A stretch of DNA of 40,422 bases from a virus (IMGVR_UViG_2563366920_000004), one strand, 5' to 3'. Shown: positions 1,776 to 20,628, counted from the first letter of the stretch. Notes: generated from the letters alone by a model not told the origin. Numbers and translations: made by a program.

Positions 1776-2258
1776 CTATCTGGTCAGGGTGTCGTACTGT
1801 TTTTCGCAGACTCTTCCGGCTTCGGCTGCCCGGTCAGCATACTCTGCCAGTTGTCTGTTTCTCTCGAGAGATTTGCTGAGCACGTCGGCAAGCAAAACTC
1901 CGGTGTCTGCGGCTGACGACCCAGCGCCGACAATGGCGTTATACTGCCTGAGCTGCTCACGGATGGCAACGAGCTGTTGCTGCAACCTACCAGCGCGAGC
2001 GGCAGCATCAAGAGCATCGCTGCGCGCCTGATCGATCCTCTGCTGCGCTTCACGTTCATTGGTCGCTTTCTCCTGTTCGTAGTACTGACGAACTTTTTCT
2101 TCTTCGGCTTTGCGGTCTTCTTCCGCCTGCGCATACCCGGCATCGTACTGGCGACTGCCGTGTGCATTCCAGGCTACAACTCCTGATATGACCAGAACAG
2201 CAAGCATCGCCATGATAACCAACTGTTTCCAGTATGCTTTTGCGAATGCCCAGATCAT
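1776..2258 (-). CDS. Rz-like i-spanin (inner-membrane spanin subunit)
   Basis: N-terminal transmembrane helix then coiled-coil Q/E/R/A-rich periplasmic domain; start overlaps endolysin stop by 4 nt; last gene of the lysis cassette. Confidence 0.6.
1784..2059 (-). CDS. Rz1-like o-spanin lipoprotein embedded out of frame within Rz
   Basis: Alternate frame inside the Rz gene encodes a signal peptide with lipobox ([16 protein letters not shown]) followed by a Pro-rich short protein; start taken at internal Met-37 of the track ORF 1784..2167 (Met-51 at 2017 is an alternative). Confidence 0.5.
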   Translation of the reverse strand: MNVKRSRGSIRRAAMLLMLPLALVGCSNSSLPSVSSSGSITPLSALGRQPQTPEFCLPTCSANLSRETDNWQSMLTGQPKPEESAKNSTTP

Positions 2259-2884
2259 ACCGCCAGCACCTTACTGGCAGTGATGTATCGCGCGCGCCGG
2301 TCATCAATGCCGTTCCGGCCACCATTGATAAGCAGAGTTACACGTGCAATATCTCCGGTATACTTCATGCAGCCTTTGCTGGCGAAGAACCACGCCGCGC
2401 TACGAGCCGCATATTCGTCCTGCGCCAGCAGTTCAGGATTCTCCAGCAGGTCAACCTTCAGACCGTTTCCGCAATCACGATAGTTATTCAAACCGGTAAT
2501 CTGGATAAGTCCGCGCCCTCGGTAATTCCAGCCATCACCAGGGGCATTGTTCCCCATGCGTTTGCTGTACACCAGATTGGCAATCGCTCTCTGGCGCTCA
2601 GGTGGCAATGGTGGTTCGCCTGCGCGTCGCCCCAATGCGTTGGCCTGTCCCTGAGTGAGACGCCCAGCCCGAACAAAGTTAGCCAGTCCGCTGACGCTGT
2701 AGTTGAAATTCTCCTGCAACCGGGTGAAGCCTCCAGACTCATGCCCGACCTGAGCAATAAACATAGCCTGATCTTCTGGTTTGCTGATACCAAACTCTTT
2801 CATCGCAGAAGTTATATGCGAGAACCAGCGTGCGGCCAGTGCCTCGCTGATACCAGCAGCTCGCTGGAATTGTTTAATCTCCAT
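2255..2884 (-). CDS. endolysin, glycoside hydrolase family 19 (chitinase-like lysozyme)
   Basis: Start set at internal Met (MEIKQFQ...) of track ORF 2255..3049; motifs [10 protein letters not shown] and [12 protein letters not shown] typical of GH19 phage endolysins; overlaps the upstream holin-like gene. Confidence 0.85.
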
Positions 2885-3182
2885 GTTTAGACCTCGATAC
2901 TTTGAAAATTTGAACGACGTTACCGCGCGTTTTAATAACCGCAGCAAGCATGACAGCGTTGATAATGACCTCGGATAAATCCACAGCCATTGGCGTACGT
3001 AACCAGATTGCATAGGCGACTCGAACAGGAATACTGGCCGCAGCAACAATCAGGAAATAAGCAAGCCATCCTCCCCACCTTCGGTGTTGAGAGCCGTTAC
3101 GCCGGAATGTGACAACGCGAATTGCTATGCCAGTGCAAATAACTGCATTGGTGATAAGCAAAAAAAACTCATGCGTTACCAT
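2874..3182 (-). CDS. holin/antiholin-like small membrane protein
   Basis: 102 aa with 2-3 hydrophobic helices and charged C-terminus; located between a holin-like gene and the endolysin, overlapping both. Confidence 0.5.
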
Positions 3183-3573
3183 CGTCTTTTCTCCCCGGAA
3201 TTAACTCGCGTGGATTATCGGAACGGTGATAGAGCCATATACCAATACGCACAGCGACAATTGCTGACACGAATGCGCCTGCAGAGAAAACAATCCCTTT
3301 TTCAAAAGAGTCCTGCGTGATGGTAGGGATCAGGCTAGCTATGCCGATAAGAATTGATGCTGCTGGTTTGTAAAAGAGAAGGCCGCAAAGAAAGCTGAGC
3401 ATCGACAGGAGCACCCGGCGACGGATGGGGTACTCTACTGCAGAGGTAACAAAAATCACCGCCCCAGCCAAAGCCCCTAAAGCAACCTCCGGAGGGACAC
3501 CTGCAATAACCGCAGCAAGAGAACCAAAACTAAGCAACTGATTTAATTGCTCACTTGTTACTTGAGCAGACAT
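3169..3573 (-). CDS. holin-like membrane protein
   Basis: 134 aa, several hydrophobic helices, charged C-terminal tail; AGGAG RBS 6 nt upstream; first gene of lysis cassette. Confidence 0.55.
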   Translation of the reverse strand: MSAQVTSEQLNQLLSFGSLAAVIAGVPPEVALGALAGAVIFVTSAVEYPIRRRVLLSMLSFLCGLLFYKPAASILIGIASLIPTITQDSFEKGIVFSAGAFVSAIVAVRIGIWLYHRSDNPRELIPGRKDDGNA

Positions 3574-3879: not shown

Positions 3880-6800
3880 TTAACGTTCTTCCAGAGACTG
3901 AATCCGCTCTTTTATCTTATCCATTTCTCTGCGCTGCCATGCTGCCTCGATATAGAATAAGAGATCAGGTCTGACCCCCCATCTAGATCCTGCTGGCGTT
4001 ATTTCAACGCGCTCAATGATGTCTTCCATTACCATCACTGGATTATCATCCTCATCAACAATGATGCTCCCGTCATTATCAGTCAGCGGAATTTCCCTTT
4101 GGCCAGTAATGACGTCATCATATACTGCGGGATAATCGTCATAGCAAAGAAAGGCATAGCGGCATGTTGTGCTTTCTTCTTCCATGAGTCCGTGAGAAAT
4201 AAGAACATCACGAAGTTGCTGCGCGATTACACCATGATGTATCCTCGCCCCTTCTTCTCCCTTTATAGCGACAGCGTTCAGCCATTTATAAGCGATATAC
4301 CTGACGTCACCCCAGGCATCCAGCAATGCTTCGTCAGGAGAGACCGGCTCTGTCTTTAATGTTCCGTCACTGGTAACCACAGGATTGGAGCCAAGATAAA
4401 CTGTCGAGAACCTGTTTCCCGGACCACCAAGAGCATTTACATTATCAAGATAAGGTTTAACATCTCCGTTCTCAAAAAGATGTTCGAGTGCGTTATATAC
4501 CGCGCGACGTGGAGTACTGCTTCTGGAACCATGCAACGTTATCATTGCACCATCTGCTGAAGACGTTGTTTCACCGCCGCTAACGATTAATCTCTGAGCG
4601 GTAACATCATCAGACGGTACTTTCTTCGCAATAATGGCGTAATTACCCTCAAGTTTGACTTCCGCGCGAACTTGTCCTGATGTACCTGCATGGACAGTCA
4701 GTGACTGGACGGCAACATCATCTGTGAAATCAACGGGTACAGGAACCGTCCTCACGCCTGACGTCGACATAAAAGTAGGAAGCGTTCTGTTAGGAGTGGC
4801 TCCGTAGACAAAATCCCTTGAAACAAATTCTTCCTGTTTAATTTTCACCCTGAAACAATACAAATCAGCCGGGTGACCATCGTGAACATAAGGATATTTT
4901 CTGTTGTTATCCCCTATGCTCCATGGGTTTAGAAAGTCTTCCCCACCGAAAATGTAGTACAGCCAGTTGTCTTTGATACAAACTGAACCAACACCAACCG
5001 CAGAGTTAACTATTCCGCCCTGATAAATCTGATCAGTAACATTAACCCACTCTACATTATCCAGACTCCACTCATTGACGTTAACTCTGGTCATAAATGT
5101 TCTTGGATAGTTTCCTGCATAACGGTTATCAGGTTCTCCTCCTTCCCACTCACCAAATGCGCGCTCACTGCCAAAAATAATCAGCTCATCGCCAACTTTG
5201 GCAAAAGGAAGGTTTGAGTGATGAACATTATTTGGGAAGCGAAGAGAATTCCATGATGTACCTAAATCAGAGCTTCTGTGCAATGAACTACCGGGTTGAG
5301 TACTTAATGTCCCCCTGGTCGTCAGATACAGAATGCCATCATAATATTTTACACATGGCTCAGATGCATTCGCCTCATATTCTGCAGGTATGCGTCTGCG
5401 AACAAAGCTACCAGGAGAACCGAAAGCATCAGAGAAATAGAGTATCCCAAGCTCGCGTGGACCAATATCACCATTATGGTAGCCAACAGCAAAACTGTTA
5501 TCGCTAATCGTCGCAAAACTGTGAATCTCAGTAACAGGAGTGCTTCCGTCAACAAAAGAAGGAATAGTTCCAAGACTGGTTTTTCTCCATGGTGACGAGT
5601 GAAATGATGTACCAAAACTCCAGTATCTACCCTCGTTATTCTGATCCACATCCTGGGTATTTTGCGTCGTAACTGTAAAAGTATTTTTATCAATAACAGT
5701 AGTCACCGTCATATTCCCGGTAACACCTGTAACACCAGAGTTTGAGAAGTTGACAAAATCACCAGCAAATAATCCGTGATCAGTAATGCGAATATAAGCG
5801 ACTTGCTGATTTGCTGCTTTCGTTATACCACCATAAACGCGAAGGCTGCGACTCATTGGGCGATCCCACAACTCTGCAACCTGCAGTTTATTTCCGCTCA
5901 CGGTCCGCGTCTCAATTACAGCAAAAAGGCGATTTCTGACAACCCCCATACTCATGCAGTGATAGTTAACTGTGGGATAGTTTTCATGTAAATCTGTAAG
6001 CCATTCCGGCGTTGTCCAGGTCTTCCCGTCATCTCCTGAGCGAACCCATGCAACATGGAGGTTATTTACACCATGGCGGTCTCCAGCCATAAAAGGCGCA
6101 TAGATGACATTGTCATATACAAACGTTTTATCCTGCGTCCAGGCGTTGTACCACGGTGTATCTGTAATTTTAAATAACTCTCCCTGGATAAAATCTTCAG
6201 AAGCATAAAAAAGAGGCTGACCCGGTATTCTCTCAAATAAAAAACGAGCATTTTTAAATCGGCTGACATCCGGAAGAGTTGATACTTTAAAAGTAAGCCC
6301 TAATCCGTCAATTTTATAACCTGGAGATGAGGCTTCAAGGCACGCGCTTATTGCAGTGGAATCGTCATTTATACCATCACCAACAGCTCCAAAATCTTTG
6401 GGGCTAATAGCATCACGCATTTTATCCTGGAACGTTCGGTACACAGCCCCAGAACCATACTGAATAAACCAACCAAAACCACCAACAACCCCGGCGATTG
6501 CAGCATCGACATAATTACGCATTGAGCGATTATTTACAGCGTCCTGTTCAAGTGATGGATCTGCAAGGTTAGAAATTTTGTTTTGCTTTGCATCGTAATA
6601 TTTTGCAAGCAAAGATGGTTTCATCAATGCACGTCTGAACCACCCAAAACATTGCTGGATCAGCATCGTCAGGTAGTCAAAAGCATCTTCATGCACTTCG
6701 GGGAAAAATTTTCCCTGATTGCGAAGGTCTGTCTCCTGCACTACATCAAGCACACGATCTATCGTAATTCGCCATCCAGTAGCAAGCGGCGACGGAAGAA

Positions 6801-6999
6801 CCACAGAACCGCCACTATAAGTTCCCGCCCCAGTTACCGTATAACCGGTATCCAGTACTAGTTCTGTTACGTTACCGTTAAGGTCAGACACCTGAACAAC
6901 CAGGTCGGATTTTTTGAAAATACGGAAGGTATACGGAAATGATGTCGTAACGCCGTTACCAGTGTATTCGTTGTGGTCAACTTCGGTTGAGACCGTCAT
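3880..6999 (-). CDS. tailspike / tail fiber with T7 gp17-like N-terminal adaptor domain, sialidase-like Asp-box motifs and C-terminal intramolecular chaperone (S74-like) domain; putative endosialidase
   Basis: N-terminal ~120 aa follow the T7 tail-fiber N-domain pattern; two Asp-box-like motifs (RSGDDGKTW, SSDLGTSW); C-terminal ~150 aa resemble self-cleaving chaperone domains (TSDGTLK ... IHHGVIAQQL). Confidence 0.75.
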   Translation of the reverse strand: MTVSTEVDHNEYTGNGVTTSFPYTFRIFKKSDLVVQVSDLNGNVTELVLDTGYTVTGAGTYSGGSVVLPSPLATGWRITIDRVLDVVQETDLRNQGKFFPEVHEDAFDYLTMLIQQCFGWFRRALMKPSLLAKYYDAKQNKISNLADPSLEQDAVNNRSMRNYVDAAIAGVVGGFGWFIQYGSGAVYRTFQDKMRDAISPKDFGAVGDGINDDSTAISACLEASSPGYKIDGLGLTFKVSTLPDVSRFKNARFLFERIPGQPLFYASEDFIQGELFKITDTPWYNAWTQDKTFVYDNVIYAPFMAGDRHGVNNLHVAWVRSGDDGKTWTTPEWLTDLHENYPTVNYHCMSMGVVRNRLFAVIETRTVSGNKLQVAELWDRPMSRSLRVYGGITKAANQQVAYIRITDHGLFAGDFVNFSNSGVTGVTGNMTVTTVIDKNTFTVTTQNTQDVDQNNEGRYWSFGTSFHSSPWRKTSLGTIPSFVDGSTPVTEIHSFATISDNSFAVGYHNGDIGPRELGILYFSDAFGSPGSFVRRRIPAEYEANASEPCVKYYDGILYLTTRGTLSTQPGSSLHRSSDLGTSWNSLRFPNNVHHSNLPFAKVGDELIIFGSERAFGEWEGGEPDNRYAGNYPRTFMTRVNVNEWSLDNVEWVNVTDQIYQGGIVNSAVGVGSVCIKDNWLYYIFGGEDFLNPWSIGDNNRKYPYVHDGHPADLYCFRVKIKQEEFVSRDFVYGATPNRTLPTFMSTSGVRTVPVPVDFTDDVAVQSLTVHAGTSGQVRAEVKLEGNYAIIAKKVPSDDVTAQRLIVSGGETTSSADGAMITLHGSRSSTPRRAVYNALEHLFENGDVKPYLDNVNALGGPGNRFSTVYLGSNPVVTSDGTLKTEPVSPDEALLDAWGDVRYIAYKWLNAVAIKGEEGARIHHGVIAQQLRDVLISHGLMEEESTTCRYAFLCYDDYPAVYDDVITGQREIPLTDNDGSIIVDEDDNPVMVMEDIIERVEITPAGSRWGVRPDLLFYIEAAWQRREMDKIKERIQSLEER

Positions 7000-7452: not shown

Positions 7453-7490
7453 AGAAAAGGCCGCTCTAGCGGCCTATCGTTTCGCTTTGT
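7451..7490. terminator. bidirectional intrinsic terminator
   Basis: GGCCGC-TCTA-GCGGCC hairpin with A-run upstream and T-rich tract downstream, between convergent genes 7195..7452 (+) and 7474..8202 (-). Confidence 0.55.
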
Positions 7491-8202
7491 GCTCGTCCCA
7501 GCACGTTTTGCACCATGCCATTAAGCCGTCCGCATTTTGATTATTAGGGTAAAAGCTAGTTCGTTTTCTGCGGACATTACAAATTGGGCACCACTTCATA
7601 TGGCGTGTATTCTTTGGGCCATCGAGACACCTTGCACACCACTTAGTCAATCCATCTGGATTTTTTGACGATTTCCTGAATTTTTCATATGGAAGGTTTA
7701 TTCTGCATCGCAAGCACTGCTTGCTACCACTTGAAACTCTGTTAGCTGATTCTTCTTTTGGCGGCGATACAGAAGGTATTCTTGCTGGCTCTGATACTGC
7801 CTGAGGTGCTTTTTTAGATGACTGAGACGATATGTCATCACCAGGGAATCTTCCATGATATGCCGGACGCGTTGACACTCCGGGTGGAAGCTCAGCTGTA
7901 AACGGCTTTGGCTGAATCAGTTGCCTCTCTTTTGCTAACTCCTGCTGTTTATAATATGTCTGGATTACCGCGCTATCATAAGCAGGAGGTACGGAAATAT
8001 TAGGCGCATTATCTCCCGTTTTTTGAAACTGAGTGGAGGTGTGTTCTATCACCTGTGTACGATTAATCGTTATCTCCCCATCTTCAGTCTTTATCGTTTT
8101 GTTATGATTAACGACCGTACGATCAGAGATCTTAGTCTTGTTCTGGTTGATAACGTAAATAATCACCGCAACCACACCAACAACTACCCAGAAAACTTCC
8201 AT
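7474..8202 (-). CDS. membrane-anchored protein with C-terminal tandem CxxC zinc-ribbon repeats, unknown function
   Basis: N-terminal transmembrane helix (VFWVVVGVVAVIIYVI), long Pro/Ser-rich linker, C-terminal duplicated motif C-x2-C ... DGL-x2-WC-x2-C; GAGGAAAGG RBS before ATG. Confidence 0.6.
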   Translation of the reverse strand: MEVFWVVVGVVAVIIYVINQNKTKISDRTVVNHNKTIKTEDGEITINRTQVIEHTSTQFQKTGDNAPNISVPPAYDSAVIQTYYKQQELAKERQLIQPKPFTAELPPGVSTRPAYHGRFPGDDISSQSSKKAPQAVSEPARIPSVSPPKEESANRVSSGSKQCLRCRINLPYEKFRKSSKNPDGLTKWCARCLDGPKNTRHMKWCPICNVRRKRTSFYPNNQNADGLMAWCKTCWDEHKAKR

Positions 8203-9505: not shown

Positions 9506-10045
9506 GTGTTAAGTGAAGAAATGCAATTTGCCATGGCTGTGGCTCAAATCGTAAGTGCAGTCGCGGTTTCGCTTGGCTTGTTCATAGCTATCGCTACTAT
9601 TATTTATAATGTAAATACAGCGAGAAAAGTACACACTTCAGTATTCCTTGGTGAAAGCAGGTTTGATGTAGATTATAAGAAAGGCCTATCTACTATGCGC
9701 CGCATTCACGAGTCGAACAAATCATTCCGCTCTTATATGTATCCAAGCAATGGGCAGGCTGATCTTACGGATGAAGAAAAGATAGAGAAGAGAGAAATAA
9801 TTTACTGTCTAGGTTTCTACGAACGCATGGCTGTGAGCGTGAAGCGGAAAACTTATGATGAGACCATGATTAAGGAAGTATTTTACAGCTCCGTTGTAAA
9901 TAACTATCAGATTGCGCTACCTCTTATACAAGCTATTAGAGAAAAAGAAAACATAAACACATATTTTAAAGAATATGAATGGTTGGCCACACGATGGAAG
10001 GATTGTCCATTGAAGGATAAATCCCCGTGGTACAAGTTTTGGTAA
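9506..10045 (+). CDS. single-pass membrane protein of unknown function (candidate superinfection-exclusion/abortive-infection moron)
   Basis: GTG start with GGAG RBS 7 nt upstream; N-terminal transmembrane helix (AVAQIVSAVAVSLGLFIAIATIIY) then ~140-aa soluble domain; visibly AT-rich; strong terminator immediately downstream. Confidence 0.6.
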   Translation: MLSEEMQFAMAVAQIVSAVAVSLGLFIAIATIIYNVNTARKVHTSVFLGESRFDVDYKKGLSTMRRIHESNKSFRSYMYPSNGQADLTDEEKIEKREIIYCLGFYERMAVSVKRKTYDETMIKEVFYSSVVNNYQIALPLIQAIREKENINTYFKEYEWLATRWKDCPLKDKSPWYKFW

Positions 10046-10066
10046 GCCCGCGCTGCGGGCTTTTTT
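10046..10066 (+). terminator. intrinsic terminator
   Basis: GCCCGC-GCT-GCGGGC followed by TTTTTT directly after the stop codon of 9506..10045. Confidence 0.7.
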
Positions 10067-10130: not shown

Positions 10131-10137
10131 TGTTTGA

Positions 10138-10989
10138 TCACTGTGCAGTTTTCGCTGATCGATTTTCAGCTCTAAATTCAAGAACCGTTTCAATATTTCT
10201 TTCCTTCAGCATATCAATAACATTTTTATTCATTTGACTATCACTGGTTAATAACTGGTAAACGTTGCTTCTCTCTTTATCAGAATTTTCTTTAACAGCT
10301 GCTTTGCATGCCAAATGCTTATTGAAATTTTCTACATCGCTAGTACAGGAATTTACGGCTGCTGATGAAATATCAGACGCTGAAGAAACACCATCATCCA
10401 AACGTTTTATAGCATTTTCTATACATGAGTTAAGGGAATAAACGACAACTGAGCGATACCCTTCAGACGCACACCATTCTAAATTTCTTGAAGGATCGAG
10501 TGGTTTTACTTCGCTGGATTGAATTAACTTGTCAAAAACTGACTTATATTCAATCTGTTTTTTATCTATAGCCCATACTTCAGTAGCTGATTTATAATTC
10601 CCCGTATGCCTATTAACATCAAATCCATGTTTTATAAGCAAATCTGCCCATGAAAGATTTATTGATTCATTGTTATGAGGCCATTTTCCTGTCAGAACCG
10701 CCCCCATAGACCCCATATATCCGCCATATGATGGTATAGCACCATGGCTCAGTAACTTCTCAGCAACCACAGGGCAATTAATTACATAAGAGGCGTAAAG
10801 CCCATTCCATAAAGCCCCTCTATAGTAATCGCCACGATTAGGTTCTTTTAAGTCGATAGCCTTTGATAATTGTTCACACGTTTTGCATGCATCAAAGTTA
10901 TCCTTATTGCATTGCAATGAACTGGCGGCTGTAGGATTTACAGAGACTATTGAAAGCACTATGCCAAAAAACAAATTTATTTTTTTCAT
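10138..10989 (-). CDS. secreted protein of unknown function at the end of the virion-protein operon
   Basis: Sec-type signal peptide (MKKINLFFGIVLSIVSVNPTAASS); start 1 nt after the stop of the 1129-aa gene; visibly AT-rich compared with flanking structural genes. Confidence 0.55.
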   Translation of the reverse strand: MKKINLFFGIVLSIVSVNPTAASSLQCNKDNFDACKTCEQLSKAIDLKEPNRGDYYRGALWNGLYASYVINCPVVAEKLLSHGAIPSYGGYMGSMGAVLTGKWPHNNESINLSWADLLIKHGFDVNRHTGNYKSATEVWAIDKKQIEYKSVFDKLIQSSEVKPLDPSRNLEWCASEGYRSVVVYSLNSCIENAIKRLDDGVSSASDISSAAVNSCTSDVENFNKHLACKAAVKENSDKERSNVYQLLTSDSQMNKNVIDMLKERNIETVLEFRAENRSAKTAQ

Positions 10990-10990
10990 C

Positions 10991-13900
10991 CTATTTCATC
11001 TGCTCTTCAACTTTATTTAGTAATGGTGATATCGCCCACAGATTCTGAAAAGGTAGCATTTTACGGACAGCGTGGGTTTGCTGGCTGTCAAATTCTCCGT
11101 TAAGTACACCATTTGCAACCGTCGCGGCATCACCGCCAAGATCAAAGGTAGGACCAAGTAAAGCACCAATAGCATTACGACTCTGAAACCTTGATACCGG
11201 AGGCGCACCAAACATCGCGCCAAGACCAAACCTACCGCCGCTTATGTTCTCAACGGTATTCAGCGGCTCAGAGAGCCAGCCAAGCATTCCGCCCCGGTCG
11301 ATCCCCTCTTTCACAAGGTTATTCCAGCTGTAGTCGATATCGCGACCGCTTAACTTCTGTTTCATCATATAGACCATTGAGCCAAGCGCAATCGTGCCAA
11401 GCGCACCAAGATAGAATGAAGCATCGCCCTGCTGGATACCAGATACCAACACCCTGTTATGCTGTGCGAAGATAAACGTTTTGAACTGCGTGATCATCTT
11501 CCAGCCTTCTTTACTAAAAAACAGCGGTGTATCACCTACGCCAGGCGTTACAATCACTGAGTCTACATCTTTCAGCACTGCAGACTGGAAAATCTCTCTA
11601 GCGAAACGGTCATCCCACAGATGACTATGCCCGGTTAACAGCCCGTCCATATCCTCTCCGTGCTTCCCGAATTGCTCCCCGATTCGGCGCAGAACATCTT
11701 CATTGATGCCGACCTGTGCCATCTTCCGCATTTCACTTTTGGCGAGCGTGCCACCAGCAGAAACCTGGCGAGCCGCGTCAAGTATCCTCGACTGCACTAT
11801 CATCCCGGACCATGATTTAAGTGCGCTGTTCCACTGATTCATCAGCGTCCAGTTACCGAATTTCTGCGTCATCCAGTTCAGGCCTCGCTCAGCGGCGCTT
11901 CTCCGGCTATAGGGGTCAGTAAGATCCGCTATAGCCTTTGTACGCGTAGACAGGACATAATCAAGCCCAACGGCCATTTCTCGCAAATCCCTGGTTGCAA
12001 TTTTCACTGAGTCCATATTTTTAAGCATGCTTACCATTGGTCCGAGAGATTTTCTCAGGCCATGCTGCATCATCGGTCGCATCAGATCAGTTGCAGCGGA
12101 GACGGTCATTCCACCAAGCAAACGGAGGAAGTTAATATTCCTAGCAACTCGCCCGGCACGAACAAAGAAACTGCGTGGATCTTGAGGTGCGCCGTAAGTA
12201 CCAAGCAGTCGGTCACGCATAGCCGTAATATCCCTAATATCAGCCTCCCGTTGCTTCTCAAGAGCTGCACGTCGTTTAGGTGTTTTAGCCTCTTTTATTA
12301 GCCGGGTATATTCCTCACTAACCTGACGGATTTGCTCCCCCATATCTTTACGGCCAAACTGCGCAGTCAGCTCAATTTCTGGTGCCACCTGCCGGAGATA
12401 ACTTTCCATGATGTAGTTAACATCTGATTCAAGAAAATCTTCTATACGCTCATCAGGAATAAGCAGCGTTCGGCTTTTAGTGAAACCAGCCCGACCAACG
12501 AGTCTCTCTGGGATAATATCGGCTGGTACAAGCCCGGAAGGTGCGCCTATTATTTTATTCACGATCTCGTCAGCAGCGTCCTCTGCTTCCTCTCGGGATA
12601 GAGGCTCCATCTGCTTCAGTGCTCGCTCGCGGCTTGCATTCAGCCTTGTGGTTGAATTTGCCCGTTTTTGCAGTCGGCGAAGCTCAGAACGATATTTCCG
12701 TGGATTATCCAGCAACTCCATATGGCGCTGATAGACAGGAAGCTCACTCTTTGCCTGCGCTATATCATCAAGGCGTGTTTTAAGGTCAGAGCTTTCTTTC
12801 ATCATTCTTGCCTGAAGTTTTTCTGATGAAGTCTCGGCCAACTCTTTTTCTATTCTTGTAAGACGCGCCTGTGTGTCAGTCTCCTGAGATATAAGCTTAT
12901 TTCGTTTATCCAGTTCTTCCATGAGTAGAATTTTTTTACCAGACCATTTCTCCGCTTCAGCGATTTCACTAGCGAGAGCATCAGCGCGCGGTGCCGATTC
13001 CTCTGCAGTTTTTAGCAATGAATTTATCCTTTCAATTCGCTGACCTGCTTTGTCAGCACCTTTGGCACTAATCCCTTGTATCCAGTTGGCAATTCGCCCT
13101 CTGAATTCAGTGCGGTCGGAAAGTATCTTATCGAACTTATAAATGCGGGGAAGATAACTTTTCGCCGTCACGACATCGATATCCTCAGGAAGGATCCCCA
13201 GTTCCTGCATACGGGCTTTTGTGGTCTCGAAAATGGGGCGGATTCTGGCGGCTGCTTGTGAAACCTCAGGAATATCACTCTGATCACCACGGCGCATAGC
13301 CATGCCAACAGCTTCATTGAAATCAATAAAGCTCATCCTCTTCACGCCGCGGGCGCTGACAGATTTGCTGTACTGCTGGTAAGCATCACGAGTGGCTTCC
13401 ATCTGCTTATAAAGCATGGCGTCGTATTGCTTAATCTTAGTCTCGACTGCCGTAAACGTAGCCAACCCCTCATCATTTTTGGCGAAGAAATAGTTATTTT
13501 CGGCAAGCTGCTGGTTAATCTGACGGGAGACAAGAGATGGTGATTGCGCCAAGCGGCCAGCAGGAGTGACACTCAACGTTTTGTTAGCAAGTCCAAGTCC
13601 AGCGAGCTGTTCCTGATCGAGTGTGGTATTGAAAACCTGAGCTGCACCAATGCTTTGAGGAGAATCCATACCTCGCAAATGATTACCTACTGAGTTAACC
13701 ACTGCCTCGCGCGCGCTAGGTCCAGCAAGTAGCTGTGCACCAGCACCAAGGATCCCACCAACGAGAGCATCAACAACAACGTTCGATACGCTCTCCATCG
13801 GTGAGCGAGCTTCCTGAGTGGCCTGCAATGCGGCCTCTGAAGCAACACTGCCAGCAGCATTGGCTAAAGCAAAACGTCCGGCTGTTTCTGCAATACGACC

Positions 13901-14380
13901 GCCACGAACGACAGCGCCGAACGGAATAAACATAGAAATCGCATTGAATGGATCTGCTAATCTCATTGCTACAGAAGAGACTGTACCAGCAAATCCCAAG
14001 CCTGAATTGTATTCCATGTCAGCTCTCTGCTGATCGATTCGATGTTTAATTGCCATTGTTTCTTCAGGCGAACCGGAGTTGATAAACGAATCTGCAAAAT
14101 CTTCATAGCCTTTAATATCTGCTGCATCGTTATCAAATGGGTTATATCCTTCAATCCTGTCAAACTGACTGAAAGGAGCACTGGCAATAAAGCTACCCAG
14201 CGTGTTATCTATACGAAATGCTGCTTGTCTAGACCTTTGAACGCGTTGATCACTGGTAAATGGGTTCACAGCAGAAAGCAAAGAAGGTGTTTCCATATAG
14301 AAATTACTGTCATCAGGTGCTGCTATTTGCTGAATATCCTCGCCAAGCAACTCTTTAGGATCCTGTTCATATATCGGCAT
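10991..14380 (-). CDS. internal virion (ejection) protein, large (T7 gp16-like by position)
   Basis: 1129 aa, last large gene of the tail/ejection operon; coiled-coil-rich central region; assignment by size and synteny. Confidence 0.5.
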   Translation of the reverse strand: MPIYEQDPKELLGEDIQQIAAPDDSNFYMETPSLLSAVNPFTSDQRVQRSRQAAFRIDNTLGSFIASAPFSQFDRIEGYNPFDNDAADIKGYEDFADSFINSGSPEETMAIKHRIDQQRADMEYNSGLGFAGTVSSVAMRLADPFNAISMFIPFGAVVRGGRIAETAGRFALANAAGSVASEAALQATQEARSPMESVSNVVVDALVGGILGAGAQLLAGPSAREAVVNSVGNHLRGMDSPQSIGAAQVFNTTLDQEQLAGLGLANKTLSVTPAGRLAQSPSLVSRQINQQLAENNYFFAKNDEGLATFTAVETKIKQYDAMLYKQMEATRDAYQQYSKSVSARGVKRMSFIDFNEAVGMAMRRGDQSDIPEVSQAAARIRPIFETTKARMQELGILPEDIDVVTAKSYLPRIYKFDKILSDRTEFRGRIANWIQGISAKGADKAGQRIERINSLLKTAEESAPRADALASEIAEAEKWSGKKILLMEELDKRNKLISQETDTQARLTRIEKELAETSSEKLQARMMKESSDLKTRLDDIAQAKSELPVYQRHMELLDNPRKYRSELRRLQKRANSTTRLNASRERALKQMEPLSREEAEDAADEIVNKIIGAPSGLVPADIIPERLVGRAGFTKSRTLLIPDERIEDFLESDVNYIMESYLRQVAPEIELTAQFGRKDMGEQIRQVSEEYTRLIKEAKTPKRRAALEKQREADIRDITAMRDRLLGTYGAPQDPRSFFVRAGRVARNINFLRLLGGMTVSAATDLMRPMMQHGLRKSLGPMVSMLKNMDSVKIATRDLREMAVGLDYVLSTRTKAIADLTDPYSRRSAAERGLNWMTQKFGNWTLMNQWNSALKSWSGMIVQSRILDAARQVSAGGTLAKSEMRKMAQVGINEDVLRRIGEQFGKHGEDMDGLLTGHSHLWDDRFAREIFQSAVLKDVDSVIVTPGVGDTPLFFSKEGWKMITQFKTFIFAQHNRVLVSGIQQGDASFYLGALGTIALGSMVYMMKQKLSGRDIDYSWNNLVKEGIDRGGMLGWLSEPLNTVENISGGRFGLGAMFGAPPVSRFQSRNAIGALLGPTFDLGGDAATVANGVLNGEFDSQQTHAVRKMLPFQNLWAISPLLNKVEEQMK

Positions 14381-17127
14381 TATTTGCCCCCTGCGTATAT
14401 ATTGCTCGGAAGGTAATTGGCTGAACCATAACCGAATGGTTTGGTCAGATCTGGAGGAGTATATCCATCTTTATTGCTGAACTGCGGCAGCGGATTGCCT
14501 TCTCTCCGCACTCTAGCCTCATCAACACGCTGTTGCTGGAACTGAATGGTTTGCCTGTACATTGGAGATGTCAGCTGATCCGGCTTGAAACGAACAGGGA
14601 GACCATTTTCTCCAATATAATTTCTCGGTTCTATCGCTCCGTTTGCGTCAGGCTGTAAAACCATAACAGCATAACTCCTATCCCTTGCCGTAAGGCCATC
14701 AGAAACAAGTATTAAGTCCGTATCACTGCGAGGACCGCCAAAGGATTTTGATTTAAGCTCGCGTTTTTCCTGCTCCCACTGCCCCTGTATCCAGTTACCA
14801 GCACCATTATTTACTCCGTACAATGCCTCAGGTGCATACTTCATAACCTCTGCTTTGCCATTAACCGTAGAAACTCCCCAGGTGGTTCTGATCATGGCAT
14901 TGGTCATTTTCTCAGCCTGTTCTGCATCGCCACCTGTCTGTACAAAGTTAGCATCGTAAATTGTCTGGTAATCTCGCTGATAGGCCGCATTTGATTTTCC
15001 TGGATCGGTAATATCCGGAGACCACGAACCAAAGGAAGTCAGACTGCTGGCGTTATTTTGTGCAGCAGTTACCCTCGCCGCGACATATTTTTTGTCTCGC
15101 ATGGCAGTGGAAAGCATCTGTTTCATTCGGTCATCCTGTTGGAACACCTGACTGTAAGCCATATCAACAGCCTTATCCTCCGGCACGCCAGCGCGGGAAT
15201 AATCGTAAACCTTGCCATAAAATGCCATCGTACTTTTATCAAGTGTTGCCGCTGCCGCCGGATTATTATCGAATAACTGACCGTAGAATTTTGCCATCGG
15301 GACAACCAGCGCAGGATCTCTTGATGTTGCTCCACTGTTAAGCATTGTTTTAACCTGAGTTGGTATCATGCCGCTTTTAGTTGTGACGGTGACCAGTGTA
15401 TTGATGCTCTGCGGATCAGATATGGAAAACGAAGGCGCGATATCCTGCGCGAAATAACGGTCTACCGCTGCCTGATTGTTTTTGTCGTTCGGGTCCAGCG
15501 GGAAGTTATTTTGCATTGAAGACACGAACCTGTTTCTTCCCTGCTGAATCTCCCACTCCCTATCCATCTCTTTAAATTTGGCCTGCATTTTCTCCCAGCG
15601 TTGCTGGTTAGCAGCAAATCCAGGAGCATTTGGATCCTGTGGACGTAAACGTTCAAGAATGTCTTGTCGTCCTTCTGGAGTGAGGTCTTTAGCGGCACCA
15701 ATGACACCTCCATATTGTATCTGCGCCTGCATATCCTTCCACTTCATAGCGCCAATGCGCGGACCATTGGCCCGGATAAAATCGTCCTCAGAAGGTAACT
15801 TCTCAGGTTTCAATCCTTCATCAAGGGCTGAATATGCATCTTTAACTACGGTGCTAAGCTGGTCCGCATACTGCTGGCGGTACTGATTTCTCAGCTCATT
15901 AGCCTGCCTCAATGCCTGTATTTGCATTTGAGGGCTCATAGCATCAAATGCCGCATTGCCCGTATAACGCTTAGGTGAATCAAGGTTAGTTAGACCAAGG
16001 GCTGCCGAGATACCAGTTTCAAGCTGTTCGGTGCTATAAGGCATACTGCCATTTTCGTGTTTAATAATCCCAGCACATAAAGCAGCTAGTGTCTTTGGGT
16101 TAGAGATATCAAGCTGATCATTCTCCCCAACACCAAGCTCACCACACAATGCCCTAATATAAGCATCAGTATTATTACCATCACTAGCCGGAGCATAGCG
16201 ATTAACAATCTCGCTAACGGTGTCATAGCCTTGACGCTGGTAAGACAACATATTTTTACCCAACGCGCGGATTCCATGCTCAGGGGTAGCAAACGTTGCA
16301 AAACGTCCATCGCTACCGATCTGACCTTCCCACGGGTTAGATTTGCTCGCTTCAATATTACCAGGGTTATTATTACGTAAACCACGAGCATCCAATGAAT
16401 TACCATGTGATATTGCACGACTCACACCATCAAGATCCCCTGGCTCTCCATTAACCTGAAGAAACTCGTTGTATTTTTGAGCGATATTTCCTATCCATGC
16501 TTGCTGCCCCATTTGTTCCTTGAGCTGAGTTTTCTGCTGAACACGCCACTCATCAGGAAGCCCATGCGCATCAGCGTATTGATCAATAGATTCAAATCGC
16601 TGCTTGGCTAAATCGACAAATGCTTGGTTATCGCTATATAGCCCCGCAGACTGAGTGACAGCCAATGCATTTCCTGACAAATACGTTTGATCTTGGAATT
16701 GCTGAAACTGCCCAACTTCATATCGACGTGCCTGATTGTAATAAGACTGCATAGACTGCTGGAGTTGAAAGGATAATTTATTCCTTTCCTCACTTTCAGG
16801 GATTGAGCCTAATAATGCCTGAGCCCTTTCCTGCATATTTTTCATAACAGCGTCACTCTGACCAAGAGCGTTTTTACCCTGTTTAGAAATCAGCCCATTT
16901 TCAGGGTTGTTAATCTGGTCATCTGCAAATTGGTTAAATTGCAGTAACGCCTCCTGGGCCATAGCAACATTCGCTTTCTGCCTGGCTTCACCATATGCCA
17001 CCGCATACTGATCTGCGACATTCGCCAGCACCTGACCTGCTTGAGGAACATCGAAGGTCTGAAAACCACCGGTTTGCACACCACGACTTTGCACCTGGCG
17101 TCCGGATGTAGTAGGAACAACAGGCAT
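14380..17127 (-). CDS. internal virion (ejection) protein (T7 gp15-like by position)
   Basis: 915 aa; start/stop overlaps with both neighbours; assignment by synteny. Confidence 0.5.
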   Translation of the reverse strand: MPVVPTTSGRQVQSRGVQTGGFQTFDVPQAGQVLANVADQYAVAYGEARQKANVAMAQEALLQFNQFADDQINNPENGLISKQGKNALGQSDAVMKNMQERAQALLGSIPESEERNKLSFQLQQSMQSYYNQARRYEVGQFQQFQDQTYLSGNALAVTQSAGLYSDNQAFVDLAKQRFESIDQYADAHGLPDEWRVQQKTQLKEQMGQQAWIGNIAQKYNEFLQVNGEPGDLDGVSRAISHGNSLDARGLRNNNPGNIEASKSNPWEGQIGSDGRFATFATPEHGIRALGKNMLSYQRQGYDTVSEIVNRYAPASDGNNTDAYIRALCGELGVGENDQLDISNPKTLAALCAGIIKHENGSMPYSTEQLETGISAALGLTNLDSPKRYTGNAAFDAMSPQMQIQALRQANELRNQYRQQYADQLSTVVKDAYSALDEGLKPEKLPSEDDFIRANGPRIGAMKWKDMQAQIQYGGVIGAAKDLTPEGRQDILERLRPQDPNAPGFAANQQRWEKMQAKFKEMDREWEIQQGRNRFVSSMQNNFPLDPNDKNNQAAVDRYFAQDIAPSFSISDPQSINTLVTVTTKSGMIPTQVKTMLNSGATSRDPALVVPMAKFYGQLFDNNPAAAATLDKSTMAFYGKVYDYSRAGVPEDKAVDMAYSQVFQQDDRMKQMLSTAMRDKKYVAARVTAAQNNASSLTSFGSWSPDITDPGKSNAAYQRDYQTIYDANFVQTGGDAEQAEKMTNAMIRTTWGVSTVNGKAEVMKYAPEALYGVNNGAGNWIQGQWEQEKRELKSKSFGGPRSDTDLILVSDGLTARDRSYAVMVLQPDANGAIEPRNYIGENGLPVRFKPDQLTSPMYRQTIQFQQQRVDEARVRREGNPLPQFSNKDGYTPPDLTKPFGYGSANYLPSNIYAGGK

Positions 17128-17693
17128 CAGTAACCTCCTATTTTGAATCGGGAGTCAGAATTCATAAAACCTGAGTTAGATAACATTGGCGTGTTTCCTT
17201 GCTTACTAATCGGATTGATACTTCCGCCACCCAACTTATATGCACCGTACGCTTTTAGTGGTGCCGTTAACAAAGTGCTGGTCATCGATGATTTAGCAGC
17301 CGACTGAGCAGCAGCCCCCTGTGCCTGAGCATTCATTCCCTGAACCTGATACCCATATGCCTCACGCTGAGCGTTATTCACTGTCGTTAACGCATCAAGA
17401 GTGCCGAACTGAGCATTATCCGCAAAAACGTCAAGAGCTGTTCCGCTACTTAATTCCGCACCGGTAGCCCCCATAGTGGCCGCCGCAGTGCCTGAGCGTT
17501 GACGCATTTCACGACGACGCTGATCCGCTTCAATATTCCCACGATTGATTGAATCCTGTGCCTGAGCTTCAGCAATTTCAGCATTCCGATCAGCTACGGC
17601 TGACTGGTATTTTGCCTGCTTGCTCTGGCTGTACATTGATGCGGCTGTGGATGCCACTGTGACGGCAACCAAAGCGATGGCTGGGTTACACAT
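17127..17693 (-). CDS. internal virion protein (T7 gp14-like by position)
   Basis: 188 aa with hydrophobic N-terminal segment and Ala/Gln-rich body; synteny between the gp13-like and gp15-like genes. Confidence 0.45.
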   Translation of the reverse strand: MCNPAIALVAVTVASTAASMYSQSKQAKYQSAVADRNAEIAEAQAQDSINRGNIEADQRRREMRQRSGTAAATMGATGAELSSGTALDVFADNAQFGTLDALTTVNNAQREAYGYQVQGMNAQAQGAAAQSAAKSSMTSTLLTAPLKAYGAYKLGGGSINPISKQGNTPMLSNSGFMNSDSRFKIGGY

Positions 17694-18157
17694 TATTTTC
17701 TCTCCATGTGAAATCTGTGGAAATTAAGACCAAGAGCACCATAAGGCGCGGCTTCTTCAAGCCTGAATCCAAGCCAGTGCAGCCATGCTTTGGCAACATG
17801 GTTTCGCTCGTCGACGTAGTTTTCCAGGCGCGGATAAACTGCCAGCATCTGCTGCAATACAGGGCGGCAGTGGCGAAGAAATGTCTTCTGATATTTTTCA
17901 ATACGGCTGGTCCCGACCAGCCAGGGCGTACCATTGCCACCGATCATTGACGCCGGAGATACACCAAACATGGTTACCAGTTCTCCGTTCGCGAACCCTG
18001 ACCAGGCCATAGTCGCAGTGCGAAGACCAACACGCAGCGCATCTTCGGTAGTCATCAGCGATACCGCATACAGTTCGTCAATATCAGCCTGACGAACATC
18101 CGGCAAAATCATCTGAAGATGCTCTTCGGTAGCGGGAATAATTCGAACATCGATCAT
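17693..18157 (-). CDS. internal virion protein (T7 gp13-like by position)
   Basis: 154 aa immediately after the tail-tube B-like gene with overlapping stop/start; synteny-based. Confidence 0.4.
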   Translation of the reverse strand: MIDVRIIPATEEHLQMILPDVRQADIDELYAVSLMTTEDALRVGLRTATMAWSGFANGELVTMFGVSPASMIGGNGTPWLVGTSRIEKYQKTFLRHCRPVLQQMLAVYPRLENYVDERNHVAKAWLHWLGFRLEEAAPYGALGLNFHRFHMERK

Positions 18158-20628
18158 CAGAATCCCCCAACAGTAAGGCGAGGAATAACGGCAAGAACAG
18201 ACAGTGGCAACGGGTCAAGCTGACGGATTCTTACACGTCCGTTTTTGCCCCAGTTACTGTCCAGTTTCACTTCTACTTTTCCGGTAGCATCATCAACAGG
18301 ATCATCGTAGAACTCGAATTCACGCTGTGGATATTCGTACCATTTACCGCCGGGCGTAGTCGCCCAGATGCCGCGACTGGCATTCACAACCAGAGTAACG
18401 GACGGGATCACCTGTTTTTTGTCCAGCAGCGTTTCCTGTCCGTTAATGTTGATATCCAGTGTTTCGAATTCAGCAGTTATTGGCAGGCCGATGTGCACAA
18501 CAGCCCCAGGTGATTCCAGCGTGACGGCACCTCCGGAAACCACTTTCTGTGGTTCCACGTTCGCATCAGAGAGAATGTTTACGGTCTGGCCTTCAAGATG
18601 AGACAGGCCTCCAAATGTCCGGCGCGCCATCTGCCAGTTCGTGGTGGCCACATTCCTGAGGGATGGCGGGACGTTCCTGTTAGCACGAACCACTACAGCG
18701 GTGTTGCTGGTTACAGAAATAATGTCGCAACGTAATTCTTTTGACACCTCATCGCCAGTATCAGGATCAGTTCCGGTATAAGGGAACTGTAGTTGCGCGC
18801 CGACATCACTACTGGTGAAGTACGCACCACCAGAAACACTGATTGTATATTCCGCGCGGTAATCCCATTCGCCAGAACCACCAGTGATGATCATCGTTCT
18901 GTCAGACGTATTTCTTCCATCATAGCTAAGGCCAGAATCAACAAAGAAAGCATCTTCATCGCTGGTAAATAAACGGCTGGACAGTCGCTCGATGTATCTC
19001 ACTGTTTGCCCGTTAACGGTTCGGTTAATGACGAAATACACCGCATCTTCATTGCCTTCGCTGATACTGCATGTGCTTTCATATTTTCCGGTACTGGACT
19101 GTGGTGCCCATGCAAAAACCTGTTGATCACGCAAATAGGTCATCACCAGTAATTTACCGTCATCACGAATGCAGAAGGCGCTGGAGTAAGGGACAATAGA
19201 GAAGCACCAGTCAACAATGCTGTGCTTCTGAAAAAGATGATTGGCAAGGATAGTAAGGTCGTTCCCCTGATAGCCGTCAACATCGAATGAGTAGGCCAGA
19301 TCACGGACAACACTGCCTTTCTCCTGGACGAACAGAGCAATATTCGCCACGGCAATTGGTGGGACATTGCTCGAGCCATTTGATCCCTGAGAGCTGAATG
19401 CAAATGATGATGGGGTTAACACTTTGTTCTGGTCGCCGGTGATGACGTACTCACCTCCGGAAGTCAGTGCCACCAGCGAACCGACATCAATCAGGTGGCG
19501 GATCTCATTAACCTGACGCCCGGCATAGGTGTAGATAATTCTGTCGTCATCCTGCGTAGGATTGCTTTTGCCAAAATCCTTATAATCCCCGGTACGGCTG
19601 GCCCAGATAGTCTGAGGGAACGCAGTCGATGCGGCGAAGTAAAGACGTTGTTGATAATAAACAACAGTGCCAGGATAACCATTAACACTGTTCCAGGCAT
19701 ATTTAGCCCATTTATAGCTGGCATTATCCTCGCCAACTACCTGCGAAGGGATATAGGAAATCACCTCGGCAGTTGCAGTAGTTCCATTTGCAGCAGTGAT
19801 ACGGGCAATGCCAAAACCACTGTGCAGATATTCCCACTCAATGCCAGTATCATCATCACCGGATCCGCCCCAGCCATCCCATGATGTGCCTTCTGTATGC
19901 GAAGGGCGCAAAGTACCTGTTTTGCCTGCTGTAACGGCGCGATAGTAGTTACTGTCTGCACGGCGAATATCGCCAATCGACGTACTCTTACTGGTTTCCC
20001 ATACCGGCACTGAATCCACTGCAGGCTGTTCCAGATAGAACAATTTGCCTACCTGCTCCGCGCCAAAAATAGAGGCGCTTGCCGTTAACGTAATTGTCCC
20101 GGTGCTGGCGCTGGCATAAACCGTCACTGACTCGTCAATATTGATATCTTCAAATGGCCCGTTCTTCGTTACCACATCAACCAGTTGCCAGTTGTCATGC
20201 GCATAGCGACGCAACTCTTTCGGCGGGTATGCCGGATGAACCAGCGTAAGCACGTCGGCGCTTTGCGTGAATTTAATTCGGAACAGATCGGCTTCAGTAT
20301 ATGGCGTGGCAATTTCATAAATAACATTGCTGCTGTTCAGCACCAACGCACCATCTTTGATAACGCGCATGTACTGGTGTCCGAACTCCAGAGCATAAGT
20401 CTGAACCGTCGAGAACTGGAACGGGATCAGGCGGCATTTCCGATTTGGGTATTTGGCGGCACCGACAAAACGCGTACCAGGTCGATTCTCAACGCCGCCA
20501 TACTGCCGCACGATAAAGTTATCGCACTTGCGCAATGCCACCTGGTACTTCGCCATGTCGATACGACCGTACAACGACGGTCCAATCTCACCACCGGCAA
20601 AGCTGGGCTGGATCCAACTGATAGCCAT
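18157..20628 (-). CDS. tail tubular protein B-like (nozzle)
   Basis: 823 aa following the tube A-like gene; N-terminal pattern GGEIGPSLYGR ... GGVENRPGTRF weakly recalls T7 gp12; synteny. Confidence 0.55.
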   Translation of the reverse strand: MAISWIQPSFAGGEIGPSLYGRIDMAKYQVALRKCDNFIVRQYGGVENRPGTRFVGAAKYPNRKCRLIPFQFSTVQTYALEFGHQYMRVIKDGALVLNSSNVIYEIATPYTEADLFRIKFTQSADVLTLVHPAYPPKELRRYAHDNWQLVDVVTKNGPFEDINIDESVTVYASASTGTITLTASASIFGAEQVGKLFYLEQPAVDSVPVWETSKSTSIGDIRRADSNYYRAVTAGKTGTLRPSHTEGTSWDGWGGSGDDDTGIEWEYLHSGFGIARITAANGTTATAEVISYIPSQVVGEDNASYKWAKYAWNSVNGYPGTVVYYQQRLYFAASTAFPQTIWASRTGDYKDFGKSNPTQDDDRIIYTYAGRQVNEIRHLIDVGSLVALTSGGEYVITGDQNKVLTPSSFAFSSQGSNGSSNVPPIAVANIALFVQEKGSVVRDLAYSFDVDGYQGNDLTILANHLFQKHSIVDWCFSIVPYSSAFCIRDDGKLLVMTYLRDQQVFAWAPQSSTGKYESTCSISEGNEDAVYFVINRTVNGQTVRYIERLSSRLFTSDEDAFFVDSGLSYDGRNTSDRTMIITGGSGEWDYRAEYTISVSGGAYFTSSDVGAQLQFPYTGTDPDTGDEVSKELRCDIISVTSNTAVVVRANRNVPPSLRNVATTNWQMARRTFGGLSHLEGQTVNILSDANVEPQKVVSGGAVTLESPGAVVHIGLPITAEFETLDININGQETLLDKKQVIPSVTLVVNASRGIWATTPGGKWYEYPQREFEFYDDPVDDATGKVEVKLDSNWGKNGRVRIRQLDPLPLSVLAVIPRLTVGGF

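Follow-up and report, generated by a model that had tools for sequence, protein, structure and literature searches.

A replaceable slot behind the last ejection gene of an epsilon15-like prophage holds a gene for a predicted exported two-domain protein, a candidate periplasmic blocker of incoming phage

The passage of short-tailed phages across the periplasm is poorly understood, and so is the way in which a resident prophage can halt them at that stage. To our knowledge, P22 SieA is the only case dissected in a podovirus of a block imposed by a prophage in the periplasm, and T4 Spackle is the only soluble periplasmic protein of this kind. The question arises anew from a 40,422-nucleotide (nt) stretch of viral DNA (IMGVR_UViG_2563366920_000004; hereafter the window), the prophage of an epsilon15/phiV10-like (Uetakevirus-like) temperate podovirus. 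Directly behind the gene for the last internal virion (ejection) protein lies a gene whose product, 283 amino acids (aa) long, begins with what appears to be a secretion signal. Why would the row of ejection genes end with a protein apparently destined for the periplasm? The elements needed to address this question, all on the minus strand, are as follows.

10991-14380, minus strand: gene for the last internal virion (ejection) protein, 1129 aa (PHROG 342 'internal virion protein' and PHROG 16310; position of phiV10 p20)
10987-10993, minus strand: TAG g ATG junction (stop, 1 nt, start) with the ejection gene; left boundary of the cassette (read from the sequence)
10138-10989, minus strand: coding sequence of the 283-aa exported protein (open reading frame (ORF) list; PHROG 6118; no Pfam, NCBIfam or PADLOC family)
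10921-10989, minus strand: signal peptide, residues 1-23, with predicted cleavage by signal peptidase I (SPase I) near TAA/SS or AAS/SL (hydrophobicity and charge pattern; kept in homologues; AlphaFold2 predicted local distance difference test score (pLDDT) below 50)
10510-10920, minus strand: N-terminal domain, residues about 24-160, a Cys-x7-Cys-x2-Cys cap and two putative ankyrin-like repeats, with four invariant Cys and the invariant motifs GDYY..ALWNGLY..NC and KWPH
10141-10494, minus strand: C-terminal helical domain, residues about 166-283, C-x9-LDDG[IV]SxASDI-x8-C, with four invariant Cys and ending in ..VLExR
10131-10114, minus strand: intrinsic terminator closing this segment of the late operon; right boundary of the cassette (terminator scan; kept in phiV10)

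The 283-aa gene fills a replaceable cassette slot that extends from the stop codon of the ejection gene to the intrinsic terminator. Its limits are most sharply drawn by seven IMG/VR prophages (L054, L057, L060, L063, L071, L075, L127) whose ejection gene is 99% identical to that of the window. In the L054 type, homology to the window stops exactly at the stop codon (position 10991) and resumes at position 10133, with the terminator. The 914 nt in between (locus positions 4404-5317) are unrelated and encode two proteins: one of 146 aa, secreted (PHROG 8772) and read from the opposite strand, and one of 152 aa. The slot of phiV10 contains a 46-aa protein with two transmembrane (TM) segments, followed by the same terminator, annotated there as a terminator; an unrelated 204-aa protein takes this place in Klebsiella phage ST512-KPC3phi13.3. 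A survey of 79 IMG/VR loci carrying close relatives of the ejection gene's C-terminus found 13 unrelated families in the slot. The family of the 283-aa protein is present at 27 loci, with a one-nucleotide gap in all of them. Eleven other families have a signal peptide, a lipobox or TM segments (lipoboxes in L100, L111 and L124). Scored by this crude heuristic, 12 of the 13 slot families are envelope-targeted vs 12 of the 51 ORFs of the window; the chance of obtaining at least 12 of 13 at a background of 24% is about 4e-7 (binomial, for families that were not drawn at random). Scanned against PHROG, the remaining slot proteins yielded no annotated function; one match, to 'Cor', covers a lipoprotein signal peptide only.

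These data bear on the possibility that the protein belongs to the particle, its hydrophobic N-terminus being an anchor or irrelevant, and that it is packaged with the ejection proteins or assists their assembly. The coupling to the last ejection gene would fit such a role, as would the persistence of synteny down to 39-42% identity and the similar numbers of complete Escherichia coli genomes carrying the gene (106) and this allele of the ejection gene (120). Against it, the gene is dispensable: ejection genes 99% identical to that of the window occur without it, and the genes at this position in phiV10 and most relatives are unrelated to it. Nor is the protein conserved in all members of the group, as an epsilon15-like ejection protein would be, for it is absent from phiV10, from ST512-KPC3phi13.3 and from 52 of the 79 loci. 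Since close relatives lack the gene, its product is not a core virion component. Moreover, the signal peptide has a c-region of the cleavable type, the protein has eight invariant Cys, base composition and synonymous divergence differ from those of the structural genes, and the heads of tailed phages assemble in the cytoplasm. A role in the virion is accordingly most improbable.

The sequence across the left boundary reads ...cag atg aaa TAG g ATG aaa aaa..., with the stop codon of the 1129-aa gene at 10993-10991, the spacer at 10990 and the ATG at 10989-10987. This and the ORF list confirm what an earlier note on the window had said of the reading frame, namely that it starts 1 nt after the stop of the internal-virion gene. 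The one-nucleotide gap of the 27 viral-contig loci is found in Klebsiella prophages as well. No well-placed Shine-Dalgarno sequence precedes the ATG, the only candidates being GAG at -16 to -14 and AGG at -3 to -1; translation by termination-reinitiation is therefore plausible. A consensus scan, insensitive to weak or non-canonical promoters, found no sigma-70-like site on the minus strand in the 800 nt upstream of the gene. Given the physical coupling of the 283-aa gene to the last ejection gene and the lack of a recognisable promoter for it alone, co-expression with the late genes is the simplest reading: the gene would be transcribed with the late structural operon and its translation coupled to that of the upstream gene. 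Thus, of the late expression proposed by the earlier note, the coupling and the absence of a recognisable promoter are observed, and we infer the expression itself from them.

Homologues in Morganella, Serratia and Klebsiella and in two distant IMG/VR prophages also directly follow an ejection gene of about 1130 codons, at distances of 1, 11, 24, 31 or 170 nt. The longest gap (L041, 5351-5520) includes a perfect 12-bp hairpin (AACTCCGGCATA...TATGCCGGAGTT) without a T-tract, and no promoter was found in these 170 nt. This gap indicates that coupling as in E. coli is not universal.

The cassette differs from its surroundings in composition. Its GC content is 36.7% (28% at third codon positions, GC3), whereas the window and the upstream gene both have 48.3% (GC3 of the upstream gene 44%), and it represents the lowest-GC 852-nt stretch of the 40-kb window (0.2nd percentile). 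In four other lineages the homologues lie 9 to 17 GC points below the adjacent ejection gene, whatever the GC content of the host. The ORF is a real gene under purifying selection: the ratio of nonsynonymous to synonymous divergence (dN/dS) is 0.16 in comparisons with homologues of 86% identity (0.12-0.13 in the N-terminal domain and 0.19-0.20 in the C-terminal domain). In the same genome pairs (L033, L034, L036), dS is 0.40-0.42 in the 283-aa gene vs 1.0-1.3 in the ejection gene, 2.5 to 3 times lower, and dN is 0.066-0.070 vs 0.046-0.049. The low dS fits a more recent horizontal exchange of the cassette; a strong AT bias in codon usage could also lower it. Together, the different cassette found behind 99%-identical ejection genes and the lower dS support the separate acquisition that the AT-rich composition, itself borne out by the figures above, had suggested to the earlier note.

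In these respects the gene resembles the lambda bor and lom morons, which are likewise AT-rich relative to their flanks, followed by a terminator, polymorphic for presence and absence, and specify an envelope product (here a predicted one). The contrast in composition and the precise replacement of the cassette between near-identical phages are as found in morons, and so is the terminator. Unlike bor and lom, the 283-aa gene has no detectable promoter of its own and is joined to the end of the late operon by the one-nucleotide junction.

The family is small, with just 22 clusters at 90% identity. The identity to the window protein varies with the host.

E. coli: about 100%
Klebsiella: 84-89%
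Serratia and unassigned sequences: 54-61%
Morganella and Providencia: 39-42%

Of 5,426 complete E. coli genomes, 106 (about 2%) carry the gene, always in the chromosome and always annotated 'hypothetical protein'. The carriers include the K1-type strains IHE3034 and APEC O18, belonging to extraintestinal (ExPEC) and avian (APEC) pathogenic E. coli. A single one of 50,697 deposited phage genomes, EC.W1-9, has it, with 100% amino-acid identity.

What argues that the protein is exported? Its N-terminus, MKK-INLFFGIVLSIVSV-NPTAAS/SLQC (the slash marks a predicted cleavage point), combines a positive n-region, a 14-residue uncharged hydrophobic core (mean Kyte-Doolittle value 2.0-2.7) and small residues at -3 and -1. 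These are the features of a Sec signal cleaved by SPase I, and an equivalent pattern is present in 13 of 13 aligned homologues. Homologues of 39-61% identity retain a signal-like N-terminus, though that segment is the least conserved part of the protein. The classical Sec signal peptide reported in the earlier note is thus upheld by its features, as judged by hand rather than by a trained predictor. It is the sole hydrophobic segment. A lipobox ([LVI][ASTVI][GAS]C) is absent, the first Cys coming after S-L-Q (SSLQC) and at +2 to +4 in the homologues; a lipoprotein was rejected on this account. These features point to a periplasmic location. Taken alone, the proposition that the protein is exported and is cargo rather than part of the virion appears very probable.

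PHROG 6118, a family of unknown function, matches the protein from end to end (E 1e-200); searches of Pfam, NCBIfam and PADLOC returned no match. The AlphaFold2 model is all-helical and has two domains (mean pLDDT 76; below 50 for residues 1-23 and 90-95 for the C-terminal domain, which gives 89 when modelled separately). An alignment of 14 homologues identified eight invariant Cys, four in the N-terminal domain (27, 35, 38, 72) and four in the C-terminal domain (173, 189, 215, 228), as well as the invariant motifs GDYY..ALWNGLY..Y.V.NC, WPH and DD..S.AS. Neither domain corresponds to a Pfam entry. The Pfam Ank family does not match the 283-aa protein, and a distant relative, P0054, reaches an E of 0.013, below threshold. 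A sequence-profile search of the PDB gave matches at chance level only (DARPins, E 1.5-2.2). No enzyme-like or toxin-like fold and no catalytic motif were detected.

An exhaustive profile search over 1.84 billion representative proteins showed the 283-aa protein to be a fusion of two modules, each of which is also found separately. The N-terminal module makes up secreted proteins of 160-180 aa (E down to 1e-41) and, in fusions, precedes different C-termini, among them TPR repeats and true ankyrin repeats. Stand-alone versions of the C-terminal module are secreted proteins of 110-155 aa (E 1e-7 to 1e-4), most of them on short metagenomic contigs, that keep the signature C-x9-[LI]DDx[IV]SxASDIAxAVxxxC and a C-terminal VLxxR.

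It is the C-terminal module that recurs in the slot, where it occurs in three architectures. Besides the 283-aa protein, its profile matches a 231-aa lipoprotein (L100, E 5e-10) and stand-alone secreted proteins of 126 and 136 aa (L080, L084, L119; E in the 1e-5 range in a database of 76 sequences). Outside the slot, one stand-alone gene lies directly downstream of a gene for a CI-like repressor (helix-turn-helix and Peptidase_S24). Another, in a distant relative, is accompanied by a lipoprotein gene and encoded on the opposite strand, flanked by a late gene and by a tailspike-like gene whose product has an N-terminus 32% identical to that of the window tailspike. Such positions are typical of lysogen-protecting and exclusion genes. 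As far as the libraries and the literature were searched, the family, its two domains, the sharply bounded slot and the bias of the slot towards exported proteins are undescribed.

The stand-alone N-terminal module also has a setting of its own in Alphaproteobacteria (L047-L050), where its gene lies 6 nt downstream of a gene for a small c-type cytochrome and adjoins a divergent gene for an EF-hand NADPH-oxidase-like protein (Ferric_reduct/FAD/NAD), an arrangement common to two different genomes. This suggests that the ancestral module may have had a periplasmic role related to redox.

The gene is thus of a known kind, a phage cargo gene for an envelope protein that is probably protective. We propose, tentatively and as a possibility somewhat short of an even chance, that its product is not part of the virion but binds, in the periplasm, incoming proteins that act there and so blocks them, in the manner of T4 Spackle or P22 SieA. 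Made with the late proteins, the protein would be exported by Sec and its signal peptide removed. The mature form would be oxidised to four disulfides, probably by DsbA, giving a soluble periplasmic binder composed of an ankyrin-like protein-binding domain and a phage-specific helical domain. Its action would consist in capturing a protein that arrives in the periplasm from outside the cell, thereby barring the entry of DNA. First among the targets would be the ejection proteins of a superinfecting relative, or their peptidoglycan-hydrolase-like region. The location, the binding target and the exclusion phenotype are all inferred. Among the three roles that the earlier note had suggested (receptor or capsule modification, periplasmic exclusion, lysis accessory), exclusion is the candidate that fits the context best.

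T4 Spackle (gp61.3) is a phage-encoded soluble periplasmic exclusion protein that binds and inhibits the gp5 lysozyme (PMC7677548, PMC7650644). Like the 283-aa protein as predicted from its sequence, Spackle is Sec-exported, soluble, helical and periplasmic, is made in lytic infection and is not part of the virion. It also has a periplasm-acting virion target, and the ejection module of the window includes an internal protein with a peptidoglycan-hydrolase-like region. The two proteins differ in that no relationship in sequence or fold was detected between them, and in that Spackle is the single-domain product (about 100 aa) of an early gene of a virulent myovirus whereas the 283-aa protein has two domains and is late-coupled in a temperate podovirus. 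The genes around the slot, needed for the comparison with P22, are the following.

18157-20628, minus strand: tail-protein gene, ahead of four internal-virion genes (PHROG)
17693-18157, minus strand: first internal-virion gene (PHROG)
17127-17693, minus strand: second internal-virion gene (PHROG)
14380-17127, minus strand: third and penultimate internal-virion gene, 915 aa, with an endolysin/transglycosylase-like region at residues about 243-395 (PHROG 1044, 873, 7182); the fourth is the 1129-aa gene
9506-10045, plus strand: convergent gene for a DUF4760 membrane protein, 179 aa, with an N-terminal TM segment (Pfam DUF4760, E 1.6e-30) and its own terminator at 10044-10062 (terminator scan)
between the DUF4760 gene and the tailspike gene, plus strand: Bro-N antirepressor-like gene
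3880-6999, minus strand: K1 endosialidase tailspike gene
1776-3573, minus strand: lysis cassette of two holin-family genes, an endolysin and an Rz-like spanin, 7 kb from the 283-aa gene
right end of the window: integrase gene

The 915-aa protein is a candidate target in this scheme. Its region at residues about 243-395 matches endolysin and 'tail injection transglycosylase' PHROGs, and the protein had no match in Pfam or NCBIfam. It is probably the enzyme that opens the cell wall for the ejection apparatus, and its counterpart in a superinfecting phage could be the periplasm-acting protein to which the 283-aa protein binds.

P22 SieA blocks DNA entry by way of the ejection proteins gp16 and gp20, is found only in some related phages and is upregulated on induction (PMC10883804). 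This upregulation makes late expression of the 283-aa gene compatible with exclusion. The order of genes in P22 is 7-20-16-sieA-mnt-arc-ant-9 (P22 gene map). Hence sieA, like the 283-aa gene, directly follows the last ejection gene (16), precedes the immI/antirepressor region and the tailspike gene, and is variably present among relatives; the window shares with P22 the succession of an antirepressor gene (here Bro-N-like) and the tailspike gene. In contrast, SieA is integral to the inner membrane and its gene, on the opposite strand, has a promoter of its own (PMC10883804), whereas the 283-aa protein is predicted to be soluble and is encoded on the same strand, late-coupled. PHROG and Pfam searches showed no homology to SieA, and a multi-pass topology is absent. 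The 283-aa gene therefore stands apart from SieA-type genes in its soluble product, in lying on the late-operon strand and in being fused onto the late operon. In strand and topology, the DUF4760 gene is the closer positional analogue of sieA; its 179-aa product had no PADLOC match.

Several observations weigh against periplasmic exclusion. The sigma-70 consensus scan found no promoter from which the 283-aa gene could be expressed in a lysogen, so that any benefit to the lysogen would require read-through or an unrecognised promoter. The 204-aa slot protein (PHROG 3383), present at 14 of the 79 loci, looks cytoplasmic. The stand-alone N-terminal module is found in chromosomal contexts unrelated to phages: in Alphaproteobacteria its neighbours are cytochrome c and NOX-like genes, in Burkholderiaceae metabolic genes. 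By itself the module is uninformative about phages. To these points must be added the manual judgement of the signal peptide.

Two of the unrelated slot occupants bring up another possibility. L114 (111 aa) and L129 (140 aa) pass the Pfam threshold for Rap1a (PF18602; 30.6 and 33.2 bits vs a cutoff of 27.7). These Rap1a-like proteins are small, secreted and prophage-borne, with no effector nearby. Rap1a itself acts in the periplasm as the immunity protein against Ssp1, a peptidoglycan endopeptidase (PMC3852654, PMC3533786). The 283-aa protein might likewise be an orphan immunity protein that neutralises a toxin delivered to the periplasm by a competitor, be it an amidase or lipase effector of a type VI secretion system (T6SS), a contact-dependent inhibition (CDI) toxin or a colicin, and so protects the lysogen from other bacteria. 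Periplasmic immunity proteins built of ankyrin repeats do exist, as exemplified by Tli of Enterobacter cloacae (10.1101/2023.03.28.534661), and the 283-aa protein, helical, disulfide-rich and periplasmic as predicted, is like many immunity proteins. The Rap1a/Tai4 and Tli proteins are also small and helical or ankyrin-built, and bind and neutralise an incoming enzyme in the periplasm (PMC3852654; 10.1101/2023.03.28.534661). Yet the 283-aa protein has neither a Rap1a nor an Ank match in Pfam, is not a lipoprotein like Tli and has no linked effector. No effector gene adjoins it in any locus examined, and all members seen of the full-length and C-domain families lie in prophages or on short metagenomic contigs that defied placement, none of them beside a toxin gene. 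The profile of the C-terminal domain is unrelated to the Rap1a-like slot proteins, kinship between them having been rejected (hhalign probability 0.1%). Coupling to the late operon without a promoter fits poorly with a constitutive need in the lysogen. Since these last features, the missing effector gene and the late coupling, weaken it, immunity to bacterial toxins must be considered unlikely.

Late synthesis and folding in the periplasm would also suit a factor that is freed by lysis, as in the Shiga-toxin model, to act on the animal host or on neighbouring bacteria, with the ankyrin-like domain as a eukaryote- or surface-directed binder. The cargo gene is AT-rich and lies in the late operon, its product is predicted to be Sec-exported and disulfide-bonded, and it is carried by prophages of K1-type ExPEC and APEC (IHE3034, APEC O18) and of Klebsiella, Serratia, Morganella and Providencia; host-directed effectors of bacteria often contain ankyrin repeats. 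However, the protein lacks a toxin-like or enzyme-like fold, the slot otherwise contains lipoproteins, membrane proteins and proteins resembling immunity factors, which would remain in the envelope, and relatives of the C-terminal domain are found next to repressor genes and in sieA-like positions. Release by lysis thus seems quite improbable.

The two remaining roles, modification of the receptor or capsule and participation in lysis (as an antiholin or a sensor for lysis inhibition), would both be compatible with a periplasmic location and late expression. In T4, RI serves lysis inhibition from the periplasm. For phage N4, see 10.1101/2025.11.12.688109. The first role is disfavoured by the tailspikes: the 283-aa protein occurs at 99.6% identity or more with at least eight unrelated tailspike types, including the K1 endosialidase of the window and the 'eliminase' of EC.W1-9, which makes a role matched to one receptor or capsule unlikely and indicates a function independent of receptor type. 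It also has no catalytic fold or motif; an enzyme acting on the capsule or receptor was rejected on these two grounds. As to lysis, the cassette for it is complete and 7 kb away, which left the earlier suggestion of a lysis accessory unsupported and led us to reject a spanin or other lysis protein. In addition, there is no co-variation with the holin genes, the Morganella and Serratia relatives carrying different holin families. Either role has, in our estimate, a very small probability.

Periplasmic exclusion can be extended to the slot as a whole, in a form that we regard as doubtful. The slot would be a dedicated 'periplasmic shield' locus in which inhibitors of periplasm-acting weapons are swapped. 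The LDDG[IV]SxASDI domain would represent a new soluble exclusion family that binds the ejection conduit or its peptidoglycan hydrolase, and the ankyrin-like module would widen or change the specificity. The Rap1a-like occupants would then imply cross-talk between defence against phages and defence against T6SS.

The slot offers a ready list of candidate periplasmic blockers, including two new domains without a Pfam family. Should the 283-aa protein bind an ejection protein, it would provide a tool to trap the transient ejection conduit. The gene is found in about 2% of complete E. coli genomes and also in Klebsiella, Serratia, Morganella and Providencia. An exclusion or immunity effect, if there is one, would therefore matter for host range in phage therapy and for competition among gut pathogens.

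Other features of the window deserve mention. The RefSeq name of the 1129-aa ejection protein, 'DUF919 family protein', derives from a match of 46 residues (530-575) to a baculovirus family, with 23.4 bits, over a stretch that looks like a coiled coil. The name is probably misleading; phiV10 p20, the positional counterpart, is annotated 'virion structural protein'. In the variable region before the tailspike gene, positions 7474-8202 (minus strand) encode a 242-aa protein of PHROG 6762 with an N-terminal TM helix and repeated CxxC motifs of zinc-ribbon type in the C-terminal part; it has weak matches to endonuclease VII, Lar and Stc1. Finally, a second cargo locus lies between the integrase end and the lysis cassette (485-1003 and 1019-1558, both plus strand). 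Its products are a lipoprotein with a glycine zipper (lipobox LAGC; TraT-like match, below threshold) and a DUF5384 protein that is secreted. Since both are exported, the prophage carries several envelope-directed extras.

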